A stretch of 60,318 nucleotides of DNA, the filler included. It is 3 parts of 3 records of this genome, joined end to end, with 100 filler letters (N's around TTAATTAATTAA, not from the genome) between each part and the next. Parts side by side here need not be neighbours in the genome. Positions count along the whole stretch, not along the records: positions 1 to 28,936 come from SRR31156797_3462; 2 more parts are not named here. The stretch is one strand, 5' to 3'. The translations under genes and the position numbers were made by a program. Under the pieces are notes generated by a model, which was given only the letters and a program-made list of their open reading frames with translations, did no database searches and had not been told where the DNA came from. Of this stretch, positions 3,133 through 28,109 are shown piece by piece. How positions within the stretch are numbered: the stretch's first letter is position 1; each line of letters starts with the position of its first letter.

Positions 3133-3478
3133 ATTAAATACAATAGATCAACAAAGCCCTGATTTAACTCACGAGGCTATGACATCGAGATACGAAGCCA
3201 TTCAATTTGTACATAAAGAACGAGGTTCTTTTATTGCCGAAACACACCATTATGTTTCTCCTAATGAACCATTGCCTTTTTATGTAACTGAAAAAACAGT
3301 ACCTCATTTGTTTTTTAGACCCTTATCACGTACCGAACGCAGACACATTCAGGATTTTAAAAACAAGTTTGCCCAGGAGCATGCGAATAAGCTTACTGAA
3401 ATGCTGGATAAGTTCAACGAAATGGAAGTACTGGAGGAAGTGTCTGAAGAATTAGCCAAAGGGAGGGTTTTACGATGA
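3125..3478 (+). CDS. Phage early hypothetical protein
   Basis: Operon context, 117 aa. Confidence 0.65.
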   Translation: MCELNTIDQQSPDLTHEAMTSRYEAIQFVHKERGSFIAETHHYVSPNEPLPFYVTEKTVPHLFFRPLSRTERRHIQDFKNKFAQEHANKLTEMLDKFNEMEVLEEVSEELAKGRVLR

Positions 3479-4218
3479 AAAGCTTCTGGACAAAAGAAGA
3501 TGAGCAATACCTGCAGGCGCACTATAAAAATGGTGTTCCTGCAGAAATAGCCAGGCATTTAAATAAAAGTCTAAATAGCATTTACAACAGGGCTGCACAG
3601 CTTGGCTTGCAAAAGTTTAGATACTACAGTGCTTCTGAATCTCAGTATGTAAAGGATAATTTTGAGACTTTAAGCTACACCGAAATAGCCGAAAAGCTTG
3701 GTCGTTCATACGATTCTGTACGTAGGCACTGTAAGGATATTTTAAAACTAAAACGCACTCCGGAGCAATCTAAAGCTATTATGCACAGGTGTTCTGCAAA
3801 AACACAGTATCAAAAAGGCAACTTACCTCATAATAGCAAGCACGATGGTTGTATTAGTGTTCGTCAAACAACCAATAATCCACCATATAAGTACATTCGC
3901 ACCGCTTTGGGCGAATGGGAGCTGCTGCATAGAGTTAATTACCAGGAAAAATATGGCCCTATTGCAGACAATATTAATCTGAGGTGTATCGATGGAGATA
4001 CATTAAACTGCGATCCTGACAACTGGCGCCCGGTTTCTAAATCCAAAAATCTTGATTTAAACTCCGGGCGTGAAGAGCTGACCGATAAATACGTGCTGTT
4101 TACCTTATCTCCTAATGATAAAAAGGTACGTGATCATCTTGCTGATTATCCTGAGATAATAGCATTAAAACGCAATCAATTACAATTAAAACGAGCAGTA
4201 AATGAGCATAGCAATTAG
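3475..4218 (+). CDS. HNH-like protein with N-terminal Myb/HTH-like repeats
   Basis: WTKEDEQYL...IARHLNKSLNSIYNRA repeats; LLHRVNYQEKYGPI...IDGDTLNCDPDNW is HNH_3-like and degenerate. Confidence 0.75.
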   Translation: MKSFWTKEDEQYLQAHYKNGVPAEIARHLNKSLNSIYNRAAQLGLQKFRYYSASESQYVKDNFETLSYTEIAEKLGRSYDSVRRHCKDILKLKRTPEQSKAIMHRCSAKTQYQKGNLPHNSKHDGCISVRQTTNNPPYKYIRTALGEWELLHRVNYQEKYGPIADNINLRCIDGDTLNCDPDNWRPVSKSKNLDLNSGREELTDKYVLFTLSPNDKKVRDHLADYPEIIALKRNQLQLKRAVNEHSN

Positions 4219-12899: not shown

Positions 12900-12935
12900 T
12901 GTCCTTTTTCCACAATAGGCAATGCGTTTGATTTG
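12900..12935 (+). promoter_or_regulatory. Putative phage late promoter, copy 2
   Basis: TGTCCTTTTT...TTGATTTG. Confidence 0.55.
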
Positions 12936-12952
12936 TGGGAAAAAGGATAAGC

Positions 12953-14092
12953 ATGGCAAAATATGTTATCGAAATAGATGGTCCAATTTCCAATTGGTAC
13001 ATATCAAAGAACTTTATAAATAACGAGCTTAAAAAAGCTGGTAAAAACGAAGTTCAGGTTAATATTTCCTCTCTTGGTGGTAGCGTGGATCACGCTCTTG
13101 CCATTCATGAAGCATTTGTGGAGCATGGTAATGTAACGGCTGTACTTACAGGGTTTGTTGCATCTTCAGCAACAATTATTGCTATGGGTGCAAAGCACAT
13201 CCGCATGAGCGAAAATGCTTTCTTCCTGGTTCATAAAGTAATGACCTACGTTGATGAGTGGGGATTGATGAACGAAGATGACCTGGACAAGGTTATTGAA
13301 ACGCTGAATAAAGAGAAGGAAGAAAACAAGAAAATGGATTTAGTGATTGCGCGCATGTATGCCCGCAAAACAGGTAAGTCCATTGAAGATGTGCATAACC
13401 TTATGCAAAAAGATACCTGGTTAAATGCTGAAGAAACCGAAGACTGGGGATTCATTGATGAAGTTTACCAATTGGATGGTAACGATAAGCAAAATATTTG
13501 GGAAGATTCTAAACGAGTGGCAATGATTGCTGCAGCTGGACTTCCTTTACCAAATCGAAAAAAACAACCTAAATCCTTAAGTGAAAACAAAGAAGAGTTA
13601 GACTCTGCTTTATCTAATCTCAAATCTGAGATTATCAACGGTGTAAAAAAGCTCCTTCCCGGGCAAAAAGATAATTCAACTAAAAATTCAAAACAGATGA
13701 GCAAATCACAAAAACTAGCAGCTCTTGTTGCAGTTATGGCCGTCAATTCTATTGAAGTTGACGAACAACAAGGTGCTTATATCAATGCTGAACAGCTTGA
13801 GAAAATTAACCAGGAACTTGAAAAAGTAACTGCCTTACAAAACAAAGTTACCACTGCCGAAAATGAGCGTGACACGGTAATCAATGCACTTGATGACATT
13901 GATAAAACCGTTGCTGATGCCGAAGGGCATGAAGCGAAAATTAATGCTGTAAAAGAAAAACTGGCAGCTAAAGCGGGAACCCAGCCAACAGGTAATAGTG
14001 GTGGTGATGGTGGTAAAAACAATGCAGATGGTGTGGATTGGGATGCTATTAACGCATTGCCTCACAACCAGGCTGCAGATGAAATGTACTAA
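12953..14092 (+). CDS. ClpP-like head maturation protease with scaffold-like C-terminus
   Basis: ISSLGGSV, ASSATIIA, FLVHK, DTWLNAEET..WGFIDE; coiled-coil tail. Confidence 0.9.
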   Translation: MAKYVIEIDGPISNWYISKNFINNELKKAGKNEVQVNISSLGGSVDHALAIHEAFVEHGNVTAVLTGFVASSATIIAMGAKHIRMSENAFFLVHKVMTYVDEWGLMNEDDLDKVIETLNKEKEENKKMDLVIARMYARKTGKSIEDVHNLMQKDTWLNAEETEDWGFIDEVYQLDGNDKQNIWEDSKRVAMIAAAGLPLPNRKKQPKSLSENKEELDSALSNLKSEIINGVKKLLPGQKDNSTKNSKQMSKSQKLAALVAVMAVNSIEVDEQQGAYINAEQLEKINQELEKVTALQNKVTTAENERDTVINALDDIDKTVADAEGHEAKINAVKEKLAAKAGTQPTGNSGGDGGKNNADGVDWDAINALPHNQAADEMY

Positions 14093-17634: not shown

Positions 17635-18209
17635 GCCGTAAAGCCCTGGAAGATCAAAACTATGAACTGATTAAGGATGCGATTCTCAATCCTGAAGAAT
17701 CTCAATTGCCTGCACATTTACAATTTGCGCTGGATAGAACCGTTTCGGCTTCCAAGATCCTGGATAAAAATCCGGTTCAAAAACATGCGGTTGCCATTCT
17801 CCTGGAGAAATATCCCAACATCTCACGAGCACAAGCATATGAGGACTGCAAACGAGCTATTCGCTTGTTTAATTCCATACACACTTTCGATTACGATTAC
17901 TGGCAACATTGGCTACTGCAGGATATTGCAGAGCATATTCAGGCATCTAAAACAAAAGGCGATCTGAAAGCCTGGGCAATGGGTCATAAGAATTTACTGC
18001 AGGCCATTGGTGAGCGTCCGGAGACGGAAATTGATCCTAAGCTAATTCAGAAACATACTAATGTATTTGCAATTCAGGTTAACAATCAAACGATTAACAT
18101 CGATCAGAAAGCACTTGAAAAATTACCGCCTGAAGCACAACAGATGCTTGTAGCATTAATGAATCAACCAATTGAAGATAACAGAGCTGAAGAAATCTTT
18201 AATTCATGA
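17631..18209 (+). CDS. Hypothetical protein (terminase small subunit candidate)
   Basis: Directly upstream of terL with ATGA coupling; ISRAQAYED. Confidence 0.6.
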   Translation: MSRKALEDQNYELIKDAILNPEESQLPAHLQFALDRTVSASKILDKNPVQKHAVAILLEKYPNISRAQAYEDCKRAIRLFNSIHTFDYDYWQHWLLQDIAEHIQASKTKGDLKAWAMGHKNLLQAIGERPETEIDPKLIQKHTNVFAIQVNNQTINIDQKALEKLPPEAQQMLVALMNQPIEDNRAEEIFNS

Positions 18210-19942
18210 TAAGACAGAATATTAATCTTAATCCATCGCAGCTTCAGAATATACTGCTTTTCCCAAAACGAAAAGTATCTGTAAAAGGTCGTGGAGTTGG
18301 TAAATCCTACGAAACAGGTAATGATATAGACCAGGTAAATAAGCAAATGCCCAGAGCTTGTATGGCCATTACCGGAACTACCTTTGGTCAGCTGCTTACC
18401 CGTACATTACCTTCGGCTTTCAAATACCTTCATGAATTAGGCTATGTTCAGCATGAATCTAAAAAGAAGCCAGGGAATTATGTAATTGGTCGAAAACCTC
18501 CGGAGCATTTTATCAGGCCTTACGAAGAAATCATGAAGCATGATAATATTATCAGCTTCAGCGGTGGAAATGCAGGTATTCTTTTATCGCAGGACCGTGC
18601 CGGATCAGCTCGTGGTGCCAACGTAGATTTTGAACTTTTAGATGAAGCTTTAACCATCAATAAAGAACGCTACGATGAAGAAACTTCGCCCACTAACCGA
18701 GGTAATGAAGAAAAGTGGGGAACTCGTTCCAGGAACCCGGTTCCCATGCATCATGGTTTTCATTATTTGACATCAATGCCATTTACCAATGAGCAAAAGT
18801 GGATATTGGATTATGCCAAGTATTATGAAGAGGAGAGAGGCGTTAGAATCCTTGAAATATGGAATCGTATAGTACAGCTTCAGCTGCAGCTAATCGATGC
18901 TAAAAAGGATAATAACCTCAAGCTATTTAAAGATATTTGGAATGAGACAGTTCGACTAAAGGCACAAATAACACCATTTGTAAGCAAAGATGGTTTATTG
19001 TTTACATTGGCCAATGCCCTGGATAATATCGATAATGTAGGCTTCTCATACATTATGCGTGAGTATGAAAAACAAACCATGCTTACCTTTCTGATTGAGA
19101 TTATGAATATGGTGCTGGATGTAGTAGAGGATTGCTACTATGCCATTGATTCAGCTAAGCACATCTATTACAATGCCTATAATGACTCTTTTTTACGTGA
19201 TTATGCTGAAGATACCAATTGGGATTTTAATAAGCTCGGTACTCCGGATAGTCGCTTTGATTTGGACTGCGATCCTAAGAAGCCTTTGGAGGTGTGCCCG
19301 GATTGGGGTGCAAAGATTGCCTTATTCTCTATAGGTCAGGAACGTAATTTCGATTTTGTCAGTAAGTTGGCCATACCTACCGATAACTTTATCAATGAGT
19401 TTTTTGTCAAACCGGATCAGTCTCCAGGTGTCATGATCAACGACCTGGTAGATCAGTTCTGTAAATACTATGAATACCATGGATGCAAAGAAATCCTTTA
19501 CTATCACGATAAATACGGCGACCACAAACAGCCGAATGCTAAGAACTCAACAACGTACAATCAGCAAGCAATTGAGCGCTTTAGAAAGAACAACTGGCAT
19601 GTTACCAGTATGCAGCACAAAGGTATGGAACCACCACAGCACGATAAGTACTTACTCTGGGCAAACATTCTCAAAAAAGATTCAGAAGATAAATATTACC
19701 CCAATGTTCGGTTTAATGGCCAGAAGTGCAAGTATACGCTCATCTCGATGAACAATACCAAGGTAATCGATAAGGACGGCAAGTTTCAAAAGGATAAGAG
19801 CAGTGAACGCAAGAACTCCATACTACCAGAGGAAGCCACACACTTTGGTGATGCTGCAGACAAACGTATCTGGACTAAGTATAATAAGTTATTGACTAAA
19901 CGAGGAAGTATTTTTGTGAGTGCTAGGTTTGGTAACAATTAA
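18206..19942 (+). CDS. terL: Terminase large subunit
   Basis: Walker A GRGVGKS, Walker B LLDEA, nuclease residues DWG and HFGDAAD. Confidence 0.9.
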   Translation: MIRQNINLNPSQLQNILLFPKRKVSVKGRGVGKSYETGNDIDQVNKQMPRACMAITGTTFGQLLTRTLPSAFKYLHELGYVQHESKKKPGNYVIGRKPPEHFIRPYEEIMKHDNIISFSGGNAGILLSQDRAGSARGANVDFELLDEALTINKERYDEETSPTNRGNEEKWGTRSRNPVPMHHGFHYLTSMPFTNEQKWILDYAKYYEEERGVRILEIWNRIVQLQLQLIDAKKDNNLKLFKDIWNETVRLKAQITPFVSKDGLLFTLANALDNIDNVGFSYIMREYEKQTMLTFLIEIMNMVLDVVEDCYYAIDSAKHIYYNAYNDSFLRDYAEDTNWDFNKLGTPDSRFDLDCDPKKPLEVCPDWGAKIALFSIGQERNFDFVSKLAIPTDNFINEFFVKPDQSPGVMINDLVDQFCKYYEYHGCKEILYYHDKYGDHKQPNAKNSTTYNQQAIERFRKNNWHVTSMQHKGMEPPQHDKYLLWANILKKDSEDKYYPNVRFNGQKCKYTLISMNNTKVIDKDGKFQKDKSSERKNSILPEEATHFGDAADKRIWTKYNKLLTKRGSIFVSARFGNN

Positions 19943-20007: not shown

Positions 20008-20254
20008 GCTCTAATCTATGGTATCAGTCAGGAAACTGCCTGATGTATTTGTATGGACTGCCTTGGCAGTTTTGCCCCTGCCTACTTATCATATTTCCTT
20101 AAAAAATGCCTTGGGGCAGCTGCCCCGCTCTGTAGGGCGGGATCGGGGTTCTTATCGTGAAACAGTATTTTAAATTGAGTTTTTGCTCAATTAAAAATCT
20201 GTGTATCTGATGTTTAAAAAAAAATAAACTGGATGAACTTTTTACACTTTATTA

Positions 20255-20286
20255 TTTGGCGGTTATGCCTATTTTTAGTATATTTA
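20255..20286 (+). promoter_or_regulatory. Bacteroidota primary-sigma promoter with operator-like GGCGGTTATGCC
   Basis: TTTG-N20-TATATTTA. Confidence 0.6.
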
Positions 20287-20354
20287 AGTATTGAAAGTCA
20301 GATAAATAGAGGCTTTTAATGATGTAATATTGTTTAATTAAATCATTTTCGCAG

Positions 20355-20774
20355 ATGACAGCAAGAAAAGAAAAAGCGCAGGTTTTGACACCTGAAAAAA
20401 TGCAGGAAGTTTTAAAGCAAAACGAAACTTTAATTAAGAGAATTGAAGAGCTTGAAAAAAAGCAAACAGAGAAGCCGAAAACCTACGAGGAGCAAATCCA
20501 ATTTTTTGAGTATCAGCAGCAGATTATTGGACATTTGGAAAGGTTCGAAAAAAAGAAAGTAGACATTGAAGAAGCTTTAAAAGTGGTAAAGGATAAAACC
20601 GAAAACGGGGATTTTGAAGCTAAAGTATTTGCATTGACTTTGACCTCTACCAATGGGGAGAAAAAGACCGTTTTTAATATTACCAATCCTTTGATAATTG
20701 GTAAGACTTTAGAATCTGTTACGGGTGAGATCAGCGACAAAATAAGCGACCTTAAAAAAGAGCTTACTATCTAA
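20355..20774 (+). CDS. Coiled-coil hypothetical protein
   Basis: 139 aa, first gene of the island; FNITNPLII. Confidence 0.75.
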   Translation: MTARKEKAQVLTPEKMQEVLKQNETLIKRIEELEKKQTEKPKTYEEQIQFFEYQQQIIGHLERFEKKKVDIEEALKVVKDKTENGDFEAKVFALTLTSTNGEKKTVFNITNPLIIGKTLESVTGEISDKISDLKKELTI

Positions 20775-20850
20775 AAAACAAAAGCCCAAAGGGCTGCAAC
20801 TCTTTGGGCTTTGGATTCAATTTTTAAACTAAAAACTAAATCATTTTCGC
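20773..20850 (-). ncRNA. Predicted SymR-like antisense RNA
   Basis: Minus-strand promoter ATTG-N20-TATCTTTA (20887-20856) and minus-strand terminator hairpin AAAGCCCAAA/TTTGGGCTTT with U-tail. Confidence 0.55.
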
Positions 20851-21129
20851 ATGTGTAAAGATACGGTAAAACGGATTGAAAAACAATTAAAAGTGACCAG
20901 GCAGCCACAAGGCAAAAGCTACGTTCCTGGGTTTAGATTGGCAGGCAAATACATGAACGACCTAGGATTTAAAGAGGGTGATCATGTGGATATGGTAGCC
21001 AATCAAGAGCTTATAATCATAAAAAAGCATTCAGATACAGCTCCGCAACTTTCTGAAATGGTGAATAAAAACCCTGCTTTACTCTCCTTGATAAGTGCTT
21101 TTGAATTGGTGCCCGATGAAGGAGTTTAA
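20851..21129 (+). CDS. SymE-family (AbrB-fold) type I toxin-like protein
   Basis: VPGFRLAGKYMNDLGFKEGDHVDM..NQELIII matches the SymE pattern PxxxLxGxWLxxxGF. Confidence 0.75.
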   Translation: MCKDTVKRIEKQLKVTRQPQGKSYVPGFRLAGKYMNDLGFKEGDHVDMVANQELIIIKKHSDTAPQLSEMVNKNPALLSLISAFELVPDEGV

Positions 21130-21853
21130 CAAACTCTTTTCAAAACTTGCCTACCGTCATGATTATATGACTTTGTTTGATGATTTTTTGACGCTTTCCC
21201 TTTGCGCTTTTGGTATGGGTAGGTATGAAAAAGAATATTTGCAAACATTAGAACCTTACAGCAAAGAAGAAATAAACATTTTCCCTCAATTGTTGGGGGA
21301 GCTTGTGAACTACTACACATTAAAAAGTTCCTCTGGTGGATGGGTTGACGGTTTAGGCGAATTTTTTGAAGAACATAATGGCAAGTTTGGCAGAGATGCA
21401 CGGGGGCAATTCTTTACACCTCCGCACCTGTGCGACATGATGGCACGAATGCAAGAACCTTGCAAAGGAAAGATAAACGACCCAGCCGCCGGAAGTGGGC
21501 GGTGCTTAATTGCGGTTGACAGGTTGGACCCTCAAAACCGATATGATAATTTTTATATAGCGGTGGACGTTGACCCTCGATGCGTAAAAATGTGCGCTAT
21601 TAATATGATGCTTTACGGCATGCGTGGCGCTGTTATACATGCTAATTCTTTATCCTTAGAAATATTTGGAGGTTATAGAGTTTACATGCCCGATACAGGT
21701 TTAGGCATAGTTAAATTGAATGAATCAGAGTGTTATCAGTACATGTTTGAACCCAAAGAAAAGGAAGAGAAAAAACATGTACATGTTTCTACACCAACTC
21801 AACCACAGCGAACCGCAGAGCAATTAAAACTATTTGAAATTTTGAACGCATGA
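21116..21853 (+). CDS. N-6 DNA methylase (HsdM-like) protein without NPPF/Y motif
   Basis: GQFFTP, DPAAGSG, VDVDPRCVKMCAINM, HANSL. Confidence 0.8.
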   Translation: MKEFNKLFSKLAYRHDYMTLFDDFLTLSLCAFGMGRYEKEYLQTLEPYSKEEINIFPQLLGELVNYYTLKSSSGGWVDGLGEFFEEHNGKFGRDARGQFFTPPHLCDMMARMQEPCKGKINDPAAGSGRCLIAVDRLDPQNRYDNFYIAVDVDPRCVKMCAINMMLYGMRGAVIHANSLSLEIFGGYRVYMPDTGLGIVKLNESECYQYMFEPKEKEEKKHVHVSTPTQPQRTAEQLKLFEILNA

Positions 21854-22191
21854 CAGCAAAAGAACAACGATATCAAGAAAATAGAGATACACTAAAAGCC
21901 CTAAGTAAAACAGCTAAAAAGTTGATGGAATTGGGCGATTTTACAACCATTAATGAAGCCATTGTAAACGGCATATATAAAGCCGATAACCCCAATATAA
22001 GAGAGTTTAAAACCTTTAATCAATGGAAGGATGAAGGAATGAAAATTAAGAAGGGTTCGCGTGGTTTTGTGGTTTGGGGCAAACCAAAGAAGAATCAAAC
22101 CGAAGAAGCCGACAACGAAGAAAAAGACGAGTTTAAATACTGGCCAATGTGTTATTTGTTTTCTAACCTGCAGGTCGAAAAAGCGGAGTAA
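21850..22191 (+). CDS. ArdC-like N-terminal ssDNA-binding domain protein
   Basis: FKTFNQWKDEGMKIKKGSRGFVVW ... YLFSNLQVE. Confidence 0.8.
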   Translation: MTAKEQRYQENRDTLKALSKTAKKLMELGDFTTINEAIVNGIYKADNPNIREFKTFNQWKDEGMKIKKGSRGFVVWGKPKKNQTEEADNEEKDEFKYWPMCYLFSNLQVEKAE

Positions 22192-22428
22192 ATGTATATT
22201 TATCATAAGTAAGGGCGCTCTTTTGGGGCGACCCTCCGCTGCGCTCCGGGCAATAAGGTATTGTTGAATAAATTGACAGAGGCATAGACATTCGGGCGCA
22301 GCCCAAATACCCGTGTTATGCGTCAATTTAATCACAATGAGGTCCGTTTATTTTTCTTCTCCAACTGCCCGCCATTCCTGCGTTTTAGCTTTTGGATAAA
22401 AAAAAGTTTGAAAAAACATTAAAATAAA

Positions 22429-22460
22429 TTTGGCGGTTACGCCAATGTAGTATATATTTG
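22429..22460 (+). promoter_or_regulatory. Consensus Bacteroidota promoter with operator-like GGCGGTTACGCC
   Basis: TTTG-N20-TATATTTG, a perfect -33/-7 match. Confidence 0.75.
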
Positions 22461-22525
22461 TAATACAATATTTCAATAAGGCCTACACACCTGGGGCCAA
22501 CATCAGGTGTCTAAAAATAAATAAC

Positions 22526-22918
22526 ATGAAAACTTTAAAAGAAAACACTACAACTTTTTTAAACGAGGTTAAATCAGTATTAGATTTAGCAACATGGGAT
22601 TTTCAAGCTTGTAACCCTAGAGCTAATTACGATGGTTGCGAAAAAGCAACTTCTTATCTTGACGGACAAAGATGGTCTATTAAAAAAATCAAACCTTTAT
22701 TAGAAGAAAATTGGGACGTTATTGTAGAGAAAATTAGAGAAGCAAGAAAAGATAACCTTGTTTATTTTACAGAAGAAGAAAAAGCAGAAATAGCTGCAAA
22801 AACAATAGCTAACGAATTAGCATTTGCAAGAATTGCACCTTATTCATGGAATAGTCGTTTTGACAGACACGGAGATAATGCCTGGTATATTGACGAAACA
22901 GTAACTTTTTATATATAA
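22526..22918 (+). CDS. Hypothetical protein, anti-defence candidate
   Basis: 130 aa, first gene after the consensus promoter. Confidence 0.7.
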   Translation: MKTLKENTTTFLNEVKSVLDLATWDFQACNPRANYDGCEKATSYLDGQRWSIKKIKPLLEENWDVIVEKIREARKDNLVYFTEEEKAEIAAKTIANELAFARIAPYSWNSRFDRHGDNAWYIDETVTFYI

Positions 22919-23457
22919 TGAAACGAAACTACCCACTTTTTACAATTGATAGGAGCAAACACAGCTCCTATCCTTTTGATTATATCACATGCTACGATCG
23001 CACGGTTGGTTTTATTGCACGTGTGGTTCATTTTACAAACGATATTCAATATCATGAATATCTGAATAGAATTGCTGAACATGAAGATAGTAAGGAATTA
23101 AGCACAACTCTTAAGCTAAAAAAAGGAGGGCTTGTATTGGTTGTGGATGATTTTTTGTATCAATTCGATTGGACATCTAAAAATCTTAACAGGGTTCAGA
23201 CCTTATTAAAAAAAGGATTTAAAAAATACATGCATGCCGAAGTGGATCGTACACCAACGGATAATGATTTAGGTATTGATGATCAAATTAAACAGCAAGA
23301 GGAAACAATAGCCATGGCAAAGGCTAATTATGAATCTTTGGTAGAACGTTCTTTAGGCGATAAGAAAATAGCCGATTATCAGATAGCTCTTGCGGAAGCT
23401 ACGCTGGACACTTTAAAAGCTTTTCGCGACAATCAGAAATTTATAAATCTCAATTAA
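22918..23457 (+). CDS. Hypothetical protein, anti-defence candidate
   Basis: 179 aa, TAATG coupling. Confidence 0.7.
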   Translation: MKRNYPLFTIDRSKHSSYPFDYITCYDRTVGFIARVVHFTNDIQYHEYLNRIAEHEDSKELSTTLKLKKGGLVLVVDDFLYQFDWTSKNLNRVQTLLKKGFKKYMHAEVDRTPTDNDLGIDDQIKQQEETIAMAKANYESLVERSLGDKKIADYQIALAEATLDTLKAFRDNQKFINLN

Positions 23458-23459
23458 CC

Positions 23460-23663
23460 ATGAAAATTCAACTTCACGAACTCGTTGAAAAATACGATAT
23501 ACCTAAAGCCTGGTTAGCAGAAATAACTGGCTTTAACCGTAGGCAAGTAAGTAATTGGGTAATGCAGCCTGATAAAACACCTATTCCTGAAGCTAAAAAG
23601 ATTATGGTACAGGAAAGGCTAAGAGAGTTAGGCGAAGTATTACGAAATATAGAATTAAAGTAA
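23460..23663 (+). CDS. Small HTH protein (Aca-like position)
   Basis: IPKAWLAEITGFNRRQVSNWV XRE-like HTH, last gene of the operon. Confidence 0.75.
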   Translation: MKIQLHELVEKYDIPKAWLAEITGFNRRQVSNWVMQPDKTPIPEAKKIMVQERLRELGEVLRNIELK

Positions 23664-23672
23664 ATCGCTGCC

Positions 23673-23718
23673 GTCGCACGGCTGTCCTTTTTCTCCAACG
23701 ACATTAAACCTTCATTTG
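23673..23718 (+). promoter_or_regulatory. Putative phage late promoter, copy 4
   Basis: GTCGCA-N3-CTGTCCTTTTT...TTCATTTG. Confidence 0.55.
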
Positions 23719-23742: not shown

Positions 23743-24009
23743 ATGCACAGACATGAAGTTTTAGAAGCACTCGATTATAAGACCGATGGTCATGATAAGC
23801 CGGTTACTTTTTCTATTAAAGTACGCCTGAAGGATGGTACCTTAAAGTTTATTGCAAAAGGTCATGCTTGTGGTGTTAAAGGCAATATGGCTGCTAATCG
23901 ATTGCGTGGTGTTCAGGAAGTAGACGAAAAGGGCGAAAAGGTAAGCCATCCTACACCTATCAGCATAGACAGAATTATAGAGTTCAACGGCAAAAAAGTA
24001 TACATGTAA
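23743..24009 (+). CDS. Small phage protein preceding portal
   Basis: Ends IDRIIEFNGKKVY; TAATG-coupled to portal. Confidence 0.7.
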   Translation: MHRHEVLEALDYKTDGHDKPVTFSIKVRLKDGTLKFIAKGHACGVKGNMAANRLRGVQEVDEKGEKVSHPTPISIDRIIEFNGKKVYM

Positions 24010-25364
24010 TGGCAGTTGACGCTCTATTTAATAATAAAGGGATTCCTTTAATGGCCAGCGGTAAAACATTTATGATGGACACCGCCGGAGCGCCTGCAGT
24101 CAATCCTAAAAGCATAACGCAGGTATCGCCCGAGTTGGATGATACTGTTTCGGTAGGTAACTTGAAGGTGGCCAGCTGGGGCAGTGGTAATTCATTTCCT
24201 TCCGATGCAGAGGAATTGATCGGTAAAACGGGCGTACTTAATACCGGGCTTCGCTTTATTCAGCGTGTGGTAATAGGTCAGGGCATATTCCCATGTCAGG
24301 TAAGCGGATATGATGATAAAGGAAACGAGAAGCTTGAGGTTGTCGATAATCCTGAAATTACCAAGCTTTTAAACGGTCGAATGATTCGCCGTTATCTGGC
24401 TAATTCTACTCGCGACTATTTTAAGTTTGGACAAGCATTTCCGGAGTTTATTTTTACTGCAGACGGAAAAAAGGTTCATGGTATTGATGTAAAAAACGCA
24501 TTGTATTCCCGTAACCTGGAGAAAAAGAATGGTGTGATACCTGGTATTGTGGTTTCCGGAAAATGGCCGGATACACCTTCTGATAGTAAAGACTATTCTG
24601 TTATCGATTTGCTGGATATGTACGATCCTTTCTTCGACATGGAAAGTATGCGCTTGCTAGGTAAAAGCACTGGCAAAACCGTTGCTTTTCCTTTGCGTGA
24701 TGAATGGTCCAACAATGAGTATCATCCTTTGCCAATTTGGTGGAGTGCCAAGCTTGCCGGATGGATTGATATTGCTCAAAAAGTTCCTGCCTTTTTATTA
24801 AAGATGTATGAGAATCAAATCAGCTTAAAATGGCACGTGCAGATTCCTTACGCTTATTGGGAAAAGAAATATCCGGAGAAAGATTTTAAATCCATCGAGG
24901 AAAGAAAAACAGCTATTCAGGCCGAAATGGATTTGATAGAGGAAAGCTTAACAGGTACTGAGAATGCCAATAAAGCGCTTTTCTCCATGTTCGAAATGAA
25001 TCCAAATGGAAAGGTTGAAGAGCAATGGATTATCACCGCTTTGGATGATAAGAGTAAGAATAGTGATCAGCTGATTACCTCAGCTGCAGCTAACTCCGAA
25101 ATCTGTTTTGCTTTAATGATCAATCCTAATGTATTTGGAGCCGGAATGCCAGGCGGAACTTACGCCGGAAATCAAGGCGGCTCCAATATTCGTGAAGCGT
25201 TTTTGGTGAATATTGCTTTAGCCTGGTTAGATCGGCAGGCGCTACTAGATCCTATTGAATTGATGCTGCAGTTCAATGGTCATGATAATGTGCAGCTGAG
25301 ATTCAGAAATACCATTTTAACAACGCTCGATACAGGAGCCGGAACCACTAATAATTTAGCCTGA
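24009..25364 (+). CDS. Portal protein (probable)
   Basis: 451 aa; WGSGNSFP, LTGTENANK, GGSNIREAF, LTTLD. Confidence 0.75.
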   Translation: MAVDALFNNKGIPLMASGKTFMMDTAGAPAVNPKSITQVSPELDDTVSVGNLKVASWGSGNSFPSDAEELIGKTGVLNTGLRFIQRVVIGQGIFPCQVSGYDDKGNEKLEVVDNPEITKLLNGRMIRRYLANSTRDYFKFGQAFPEFIFTADGKKVHGIDVKNALYSRNLEKKNGVIPGIVVSGKWPDTPSDSKDYSVIDLLDMYDPFFDMESMRLLGKSTGKTVAFPLRDEWSNNEYHPLPIWWSAKLAGWIDIAQKVPAFLLKMYENQISLKWHVQIPYAYWEKKYPEKDFKSIEERKTAIQAEMDLIEESLTGTENANKALFSMFEMNPNGKVEEQWIITALDDKSKNSDQLITSAAANSEICFALMINPNVFGAGMPGGTYAGNQGGSNIREAFLVNIALAWLDRQALLDPIELMLQFNGHDNVQLRFRNTILTTLDTGAGTTNNLA

Positions 25365-27791: not shown

Positions 27792-28109
27792 ATGAAAACA
27801 AGTCAAAATTTTGGACAGGCAATTACTGCGTTAAAAGAAGGAAAAAGAGTACAACGATCTGGTTGGAATGGCAAAGGAATGTTTGTTTTTATGCAGGTTC
27901 CTTCAGAGATTAAAAGTGAAATAGTACCCAAAATGACATCGTTGCCTCAGTCTGTAAAAGATGAATTTAATAAACGCTTTGAAAATGAGCAAATTGATGC
28001 TATTTATTATGATGATCAATTAGCCATTGTAAATCAAAGTAATTTAATATCAGGTTGGTCTCCCTCAGTAGCAGACAGTTTAGCCAACGATTGGATTATT
28101 CTTGATTAA
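27792..28109 (+). CDS. DUF2829 / Tad2-like anti-defence sponge protein
   Basis: NFGQAITALKEGKRVQRSGWNGKGMFV ... GWSPSVADSLANDW. Confidence 0.82.
   Translation: MKTSQNFGQAITALKEGKRVQRSGWNGKGMFVFMQVPSEIKSEIVPKMTSLPQSVKDEFNKRFENEQIDAIYYDDQLAIVNQSNLISGWSPSVADSLANDWIILD

Follow-up and report, generated by a model that had tools for sequence, protein, structure and literature searches.

Can a small helix-turn-helix (HTH) gene at the end of a three-gene operon in a Bacteroidota prophage encode the repressor of that operon and of its neighbor, in the manner of the anti-CRISPR (acr)-aca systems? The locus that raises this question lies in a window of 60,318 bases (the whole stretch of DNA analyzed here). 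Bases 1 to ~29,000 are a Bacteroidota prophage by gene content, with nearly all genes on the + strand, and host genes such as cysN/cysC are found from 29423 onward. Two accessory cassettes occupy a 3.8-kb stretch of the prophage between the terminase gene (18206-19942) and a small gene at 23743-24009 that marks the start of the portal module and, in two related phages, is located directly upstream of the homologue of a gene for a 451-amino-acid (aa) putative portal protein. The cassettes are preceded by promoters P1 and P2, respectively, which share a motif. The reading we favor, tentatively and at somewhat less than an even chance, is that cassette 2 (22428-23692) works like a self-repressed, acr-aca-type counter-defense operon. 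The features on which this reading draws are as follows.

20254-20286, + strand: promoter P1, with the 16-mer ATTTGGCGGTTATGCC (20254-20269), which includes the -33 TTTG, and the -7 box TATATTTA (20279-20286)
22428-22460, + strand: promoter P2, with the 16-mer ATTTGGCGGTTACGCC (22428-22443) and the consensus -7 box TATATTTG (22453-22460); proposed operator
22487-22510, + strand: 5′ leader hairpin ACACCTG-N10-CAGGTGT, 15 nucleotides (nt) before the start codon
22526-22918, + strand: 130-aa protein, acidic (pI 5.1), of no known family, with only two known homologues
22918-23457, + strand: 179-aa conserved cassette protein, the start of which overlaps the preceding stop
23460-23663, + strand: 67-aa lambda-repressor-like HTH protein, basic (pI 9.2), terminal gene, proposed Aca-like autorepressor
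23670-23692, + strand: terminator-like hairpin GCCGTCGCACGGC (hairpin at 23670-23682 plus a T-rich tail), which ends operon 2

Two promoters share a motif in the same register

The motif ATTTGGCGGTTAYGCC is present at 20254-20269 and 22428-22443, with 15 of 16 bases identical, as the first-pass annotation had stated, and TTTGGCGGTTAYGCC has only two exact matches in the window. The placement of a -7 box 20 nt after the TTTG at both sites was likewise confirmed. Because this spacing is equal at the two copies, with the -7 box beginning 25 nt after the first base of the motif, the motif sits in the same register at P1 and P2. The -33 and -7 elements of Bacteroidota primary-sigma promoters are spaced by ~19 to 21 nt, and the stretch just after the -33 element is normally free to vary. 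The likeness between P1 and P2 extends over 32 nt at 78% identity and is strongest across the -33 element and the next 12 nt. Such conservation, focused on a normally free stretch at two adjacent accessory operons, was counted in favor of an operator. P2 is a perfect TTTG-N20-TATATTTG promoter, whereas P1, TTTG-N20-TATATTTA, differs from the consensus in the last base; besides the site at 22429, the + strand of the whole window offers just one other perfect TTTG-N18-22-TAnnTTTG match. The consensus itself, -33 TTTG and -7 TAnnTTTG, is that given for Bacteroidota promoters in the available text of PMC6847099.

The near-palindrome reported at first pass is borne out only in part. At P2, a perfect palindrome with 6-nt arms and a 4-nt spacer (TTGGCG-GTTA-CGCCAA, 22430-22445) overlaps the -33 TTTG, whereas the P1 site, TTGGCG-GTTA-TGCCTA, is degenerate, its right arm keeping 4 of 6 positions, and in neither promoter does the repeat rise above chance. 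Scans beyond the window yielded no further operator candidates: the 35 exact matches to the 16-mer in IMG/VR were all unrelated and mostly in coding contexts of varied G+C content, as expected by chance, and the single match to the motif plus the -7 region in the metagenome scan fell in a G+C-rich peptidase-like open reading frame (ORF) and was read as a chance match as well. Within the window, a possible third, degenerate copy, CTTGGCAGTTTTGCC (20062-20076, + strand), matches at 12 of 15 positions ~190 nt upstream of P1. It is held at low confidence, given that ~2 sites with 3 mismatches are expected by chance in the window; TTGGCA-18-TATCAT was noted at the same place.

Downstream of P2, the three genes are tightly coupled, with a 1-nt overlap between the 130-aa and 179-aa genes and a 2-nt gap between the 179-aa and 67-aa genes, and the terminator-like hairpin follows. 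The description of this operon as two genes without known families plus a 67-aa HTH gene thus holds. None of the three proteins has a match in PADLOC or NCBIfam, searches of Pfam and PHROGs returned no toxin family for the 130-aa and 179-aa proteins, and the ESM Atlas gave no usable match for either of the two. The 130-aa gene, in what appears to be the variable “cargo” slot of the cassette, may encode an effector. The leader hairpin folds at -11.1 kcal/mol (z = -1.1), a value without significance when taken alone; it corresponds to the leader conserved in related cassettes, from which it has diverged.

The terminal gene encodes a lambda-repressor-like protein

The structural model of the 67-aa protein is confident (predicted local distance difference test score, 91.5) and has a lambda-repressor-like fold with a helix-turn-helix. 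All its structural neighbors are lambda-repressor-like regulators, including Aca10, Aca11, and Aca1, and the Z scores to Aca10 and Aca11 (5.6 to 5.7) are no higher than those to other Xre proteins; a profile search of the PDB sequences yielded no Aca. The family is small: 3 close homologues were identified, along with 7 representative clusters at an E value of ≤0.001 among 1.84 billion proteins, and the orthologues comprise proteins P0001 to P0003 and P0060 to P0064. Among viral contigs, one weak partial match was found (in L036) and left unused, and tblastn against the GenBank phages produced no match to either the 67-aa or the 179-aa protein.

The 179-aa protein resembles AcrIIC2 in fold

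The 179-aa protein consists of a basic alpha/beta N-terminal domain (residues 1 to 113) and an acidic C-terminal helical hairpin (residues 115 to 179), and has 54 homologous clusters. The N-terminal domain, a beta-sheet around a ~20-residue helix, resembles AcrIIC2, the only structural neighbor found, with 13 to 16% identity in the structural alignment; Foldseek searches of the model against the PDB and BFVD returned no match at an E value of ≤0.001. The family matches are weak, namely, PF08795 (DUF1796; E value of 4.7e-4, under the cutoff) and phrog_15536, which is of unknown function.

The cassette design recurs in Bacteroidota phages and mobile contexts

To place cassette 2 in a comparative context, 14 related loci were compiled, 13 from genome and viral collections via homologues of the 179-aa protein and the 14th from a scan with the conserved leader. 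All are from Bacteroidota phages or genomes, in phage or mobile contexts. In L038 and L043, the 179-aa gene is immediately followed by homologues of the 88-aa gene and of the 451-aa putative portal gene, and in L044 it belongs to a divergently oriented cassette between the 451-aa homologue and the terminase gene, where it is preceded by homologues of the 139-aa and ArdC-N genes of cassette 1, as in the window.

A small regulator gene commonly accompanies the 179-aa gene. In 5 of the 14 loci, an HTH_3 gene with a significant Pfam match is located beside or just upstream of it: immediately after it in L047 and L048 (two loci with the same sequence; the scan covered the L047 copy), immediately before it in L045 and L046, and just before the promoter in L040. 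Seven more loci carry an unclassified ORF of 48 to 114 aa directly downstream, and the one in L044 has a weak match to an HTH profile (E value of 7.6e-4 in a 14-sequence set). No small partner gene was found in L041 and L049.

The leader, AAAACCGCACACCCAGGGTTATAGGTGT, is nearly invariant in 8 of the 14 loci, 6 to 12 nt ahead of the start codon of the first cassette gene, even though these first genes are unrelated to one another; the leaders of the window and L041 have diverged. An exact leader scan of IMG/VR retrieved five contigs, four of which carry the 179-aa gene within 2 kb. The leader consensus folds at only -3.3 kcal/mol, with one compensatory pair. Most of the genes that surround the 179-aa gene in these cassettes fall outside Pfam: 19 of 21 neighboring genes (18 upstream of the 179-aa gene and 3 downstream) have no Pfam match at an E value of ≤0.01.

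About 55 nt upstream of the leader, the related cassettes have a promoter of the form TTG-N19-20-TAnnTTTG. Inverted repeats at the -33 element with a shuffle P value of ≤0.0015 were detected in 4 of the 12 promoters tested.

L037: -33 repeat with 12-bp arms, p = 0.0005
L045: -33 repeat with 19-bp arms, p < 0.0005
L046: -33 repeat with 15-bp arms, p < 0.0005
L051: -33 repeat, a 22-bp palindrome, p = 0.0015

In L045 and L046, similar HTH proteins are paired with similar repeats. The arrangement of a repeat-bearing promoter followed by a leader, variable genes, the 179-aa gene, and a small HTH gene is therefore recurrent, and this recurrence is the best comparative support for autoregulation, albeit through other HTH/motif pairs than that of the window.

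Several further features of these loci were noted. A GC-rich 23-mer, GCTGCGCTAYCGGCWTGACGGGC, is found 5 to 130 nt upstream of start codons (L041:831, L042:4838 and 5904, L047:5653, and L048:5152 and 5972), with a degenerate copy at ~22233-22250 of the window. It immediately precedes the 179-aa gene in L042 and L048, forms a clean hairpin only at L048:5152, and looks like a second conserved boundary element of the cassette. The residues MKTLK begin otherwise unrelated first genes in the window (22526), L042 (4967), L047 (5683), and L055 (2032). From these shared starts, the conserved leader DNA seems to extend a few codons into the coding region, as might be expected if the initiation region were a site of recombination or under selection. 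By visual inspection, the 179-aa gene follows a pair of PAPS-reductase-like (SGGKDS motif) and ParB-like genes in L038 (301-2084), L039 (4006-5998), and L043 (3353-5313), and a RadC-like gene is located just ahead of the leader in L039. Also by eye, the cassettes in two Bacteroidales genomes (L037, 4897-5466; L040, 4449-5060) adjoin a small serine-recombinase-like gene rather than phage structural genes, which suggests that mobile elements other than phages carry the cassette as well.

A proposed mechanism and the evidence that weighs on it

From the arrangement of the locus and its counterparts, we infer operator binding, dimerization, and repression by the HTH protein, as well as any anti-defense activity of the cassette, as follows. 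P1 and P2 would be strong Bacteroidota-type promoters, one per cassette. Upon phage entry or induction, P2 would fire, and the products of all three genes (the 130-aa cargo, 179-aa, and 67-aa HTH proteins) would be made. The HTH protein, presumably as a dimer, would then bind the 16-bp palindrome TTGGCGGTTACGCCAA over the -33 element and turn P2 off and, via the degenerate copy at P1, would also dampen, more weakly, the cassette that encodes the ArdC-N and HsdM-like proteins. The 130-aa cargo protein, the 179-aa protein, or both would be the counter-defense effectors, with Cas9 as one candidate target in view of the AcrIIC2-like domain.

A CRISPR connection is provided by the genomes that carry the 179-aa gene, in 2/5 of which a Cas9 scored above the family cutoff. 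In one genome, the metagenome-assembled genome (MAG) G003, an array of 93 spacers with a 46-nt repeat adjoins an open 1,525-aa Cas9 gene, and one spacer matches, at 30/30 positions, a site in the genome's own prophage that lies 2.7 kb upstream of the 179-aa gene. Full-length matches were also found for two additional spacers (28/30 and 27/30) and a partial match for a fourth (24/25), and all three full-length matches are followed by A-rich flanks. A self-targeting spacer is a classical hint that a prophage blocks Cas9. In G001, 15 spacers, cut to 24 nt by loose repeat bounds, showed no match to the ~60 kb around the 179-aa gene (from 20 kb before to 40 kb after position 800,000). Among 401 genomes sampled from the order of G003, the 179-aa gene was found in one.

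A number of observations count against a self-repressed counter-defense operon. Half of 2,000 shuffles of the 72-nt AT-rich region match the P2 palindrome (p = 0.50), and P1 has no significant repeat either (shuffle p = 0.53), so that the palindrome alone proves nothing and the weight falls on the repeated, in-register 15-mer. Eight of the 12 promoters tested, P1 and P2 of the window among them, lack a significant repeat. The 67-aa protein has no Pfam match above the cutoff, the only hit being Homeobox_KN (E value of 0.002; 18.4 bits, with a cutoff of 24), and its fold neighbors include antitoxins and restriction-modification (R-M) controller proteins as much as Aca proteins. Loci with orthologues of this HTH gene were not found among the metagenome contigs, in the five genomes with the 179-aa gene, or in the 401 genomes sampled from the G003 order. 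Furthermore, the motif could belong to another regulator of the prophage, the LuxR/GerE-type protein (1225-1797) or the HNH/sigma-r4 protein (3475-4218). On the CRISPR side, of the five genomes with the 179-aa gene, two yielded no match to Cas9 and one more yielded only a 32-bit fragment; because G003 is a MAG, its array and prophage may come from different strains, and its self-targeting does not single out the 179-aa gene.

The 179-aa protein contributes its own difficulties. Its strong conservation and constant length are unlike what is seen for many Acrs. When all PDB chain sequences were searched with a profile built from 32 homologues (E value of ≤10), the single match was an unrelated one, indicating no sequence relation to AcrIIC2. 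The AcrIIC2 of Neisseria meningitidis binds the Cas9 bridge helix via an electronegative surface (E17, E24, and D108), whereas the N-terminal domain of the 179-aa protein is net basic, with a mean charge of +3.4 (range, +1 to +5) and 12 conserved basic columns across the 32 homologues, next to conserved acidic positions at D11, D21, D27, D78, and D84. The host phylum differs as well, and AcrIIC2 lacks the extra 65-residue helical C-terminal domain. Given the absence of a profile match, the extra domain, and the positive N-terminal domain, the 179-aa protein was not counted as a member of the AcrIIC2 family, and the model is best read as an AcrIIC2-like fold; with its basic surface, this protein may bind nucleic acid.

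Alternative explanations

The shared 16-mer could instead be a remnant left when a strong promoter was duplicated or recombined, its extended -33 region having been reused, without operator function, before two mobile accessory cassettes; the HTH protein would then regulate another target or nothing nearby. In favor of this origin, the palindrome is at chance level and has a degenerate right arm at P1; the likeness between P1 and P2 extends into the -7 region, as in promoter paralogues, and the presence of the same leader and GC-rich motif before unrelated genes points to modular reuse of regulatory DNA. Nevertheless, we consider this origin rather unlikely because conservation is focused in the spacer past the -33 element, with the flanks diverged, and because very long, nonrandom inverted repeats are located at the same place in related cassettes. 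Very unlikely, in our estimate, is that the motif is bound by a different phage regulator and defines promoters of one temporal class, with some other role for the HTH protein. The prophage does encode several DNA-binding proteins, of which the LuxR/GerE-type, the 92-aa AbrB-like, and the sigma-r4/HNH proteins would be the candidates, and the possible third copy upstream of P1 would be a further site. However, only two exact copies exist in the ~29 kb of prophage, both at accessory cassettes, and the repeat varies along with the cassette's own HTH, as seen when L045 is compared with L046. Slightly less likely still is that cassette 2 is a toxin-antitoxin, abortive-infection, or superinfection-exclusion module, with the 179-aa protein, the 130-aa protein, or both as effectors and the HTH protein as a HigA/HipB-like antitoxin and regulator. 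Among the proteins closest in fold to the HTH protein are Xre antitoxins such as HigA and HipB, the order of effector followed by small HTH fits HigBA-type modules, and in L037 and L040 the 179-aa gene is found beside serine recombinases outside clear prophage modules. Conversely, there is no match to PADLOC, a Pfam toxin family, or NCBIfam, the HTH partner is exchangeable and at times upstream or apart, and the operon includes a variable extra gene and has counter-defense genes as neighbors.

The recurrence of the 179-aa gene, the conserved leader, and an exchangeable HTH gene also admits a more radical interpretation, which we regard as distinctly unlikely: together, they would form a portable expression dock of Bacteroidota phages, with unrelated counter-defense genes swapped between the leader and the dock. 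The basic, AcrIIC2-shaped domain of the 179-aa protein would then be a nucleic-acid-binding partner of the leader and not an inhibitor, and control would be split over two proteins, transcriptional control by the HTH protein on the promoter repeat and translational control by the 179-aa protein on the leader, whereas Aca2 handles both alone. Less radically, the 179-aa family may be the first family of Cas9 inhibitors of Bacteroidota phages, a remote relative of AcrIIC2.

Relation to known systems

Aca proteins repress acr operons via inverted repeats in the promoters, with binding to 5′ untranslated region (UTR) hairpins described for both Aca2 and Aca1, and several Aca proteins are predicted, and Aca14 was shown, to control neighboring anti-defense operons as well, according to the available text of PMC13551039, in the main text of which, as available, the string “Bacteroid” does not occur. 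Cassette 2 is similar in that it combines a strong promoter under a candidate inverted-repeat operator, small genes without family, a terminal small HTH gene, a putatively structured element in the 5′ UTR, and the same site at a neighboring anti-defense operon. It differs in that its HTH protein showed no sequence relation to a named family in the profile and protein searches, its promoter is of the Bacteroidota -33/-7 type, and an additional conserved protein, the 179-aa protein, accompanies the HTH protein across cassettes. The first-pass designation as acr-aca-like is supported by the gene order (a consensus promoter, two genes of no known family, the terminal HTH gene, and the terminator-like hairpin), but statistically the palindrome of the window does not stand out. 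With the promoter repeat, the 5′ UTR element, and the site at the neighboring operon all present in form, and with unrelated proteins, the locus was placed with the acr-aca kind, its function being putative. Unlike the systems of R-M controller (C) proteins, cassette 2 has no restriction enzyme gene near it, and the methyltransferase-like gene encodes only the SAM-binding (S-adenosylmethionine-binding) half. HigA/HipB-type Xre antitoxins are alike in HTH size, fold, and position downstream of a partner gene, but cassette 2 has no recognizable toxin and consists of three genes, the first of which is variable.

A limited literature search found no anti-CRISPR or Aca family for Bacteroidota phages, and Bacteroidota are a phylum rich in type II-C Cas9 and Cas13b. 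Against this background, the locus provides a set of candidates, namely, a new family of HTH proteins whose putative operator is present on two promoters, a phage protein family that is conserved and structurally near AcrIIC2 alone, and a conserved leader by which cassettes with cargo genes of unknown kind can be recognized. If this logic of the cassettes is true, the leader and the 179-aa gene would be search handles for counter-defense genes in Bacteroidota viromes, and the HTH protein with its operator would give Bacteroidota genetics a compact repressible promoter.

Cassette 1 and the rest of the prophage

The operon downstream of P1 and the other prophage genes considered here are as follows.

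20355-20774, + strand: 139-aa gene, first of cassette 1, with no Pfam family
20776-20817, + strand: intergenic hairpin with 21-nt arms, 81% complementary; terminator or attenuator candidate
20851-21129, + strand: 92-aa AbrB/MazE/SymE-like protein (PF04014, E value of 0.006; PF08845, E value of 0.008), weak matches under the Pfam cutoffs
21122-21853, + strand: HsdM-like protein, 243 aa from the ATG (PF02384, E value of 1.9e-13; phrog_5696, E value of 5.8e-36)
21850-22191, + strand: 113-aa ArdC N-terminal domain protein (PF08401, E value of 4.2e-7, above the cutoff; phrog_7245, anti-restriction protein)
1225-1797: LuxR/GerE-type protein, prophage regulator
3475-4218: HNH/sigma-r4 protein, prophage regulator
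12935-14092: ClpP-like protease, prophage gene
18206-19942: terminase large subunit, prophage gene
24009-25364: 451-aa protein, putative portal from its position only, with no Pfam or PHROG match
27792-28109: Tad2-like (Thoeris anti-defense 2) protein (PF11195, E value of 2e-21), near the right end of the prophage

To judge by the predicted products, the ArdC-N, HsdM-like, and Tad2-like proteins in particular, the neighborhood is anti-defense in character. The 139-aa protein has a homologue in the syntenic cassette of L044 (38% identity; E value of 1e-17). The HsdM-like protein aligns with type I methyltransferases only over their N-terminal, SAM-binding region (positions 8 to 117 of the 311-position profile), and the NPPF/Y catalytic motif was not seen in it by eye. 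Given that the match to phrog_5696 spans its full length, this protein may be a conserved noncatalytic decoy or SAM binder and not a methylase. The Tad2-like gene, ~4 kb downstream of the cassettes, is a second counter-defense candidate of the same prophage. A gene for a DUF6712 protein comes after the putative portal gene, and a holin and a DUF5675 protein are also encoded in the prophage.

Two additional sequence elements were observed around P1. The 15-mer TAAATCATTTTCGCA has exactly two copies in the window: the one at 20339-20353 abuts the start codon of the 139-aa gene, apart from a single intervening G, and the one at 20837-20851 abuts that of the 92-aa gene. None of the 67 fetched loci contains the 15-mer, which may serve both genes of the P1 operon in translation initiation or RNA binding. 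Searches of the window returned no Rfam match at the gathering thresholds, and the tRNA scan was likewise empty. Finally, in the AT-rich gap between the terminase gene and P1, an island rich in G tracts is found at 20100-20160 (GGGGCAGCTGCCCC, followed by GGGCGGGATCGGGG). It has no Rfam match and could be a G-quadruplex or another structured element; a similar island, GGGACAGGGCGGGGCGGGG, is located at the equivalent position in L044 (2205-2245).

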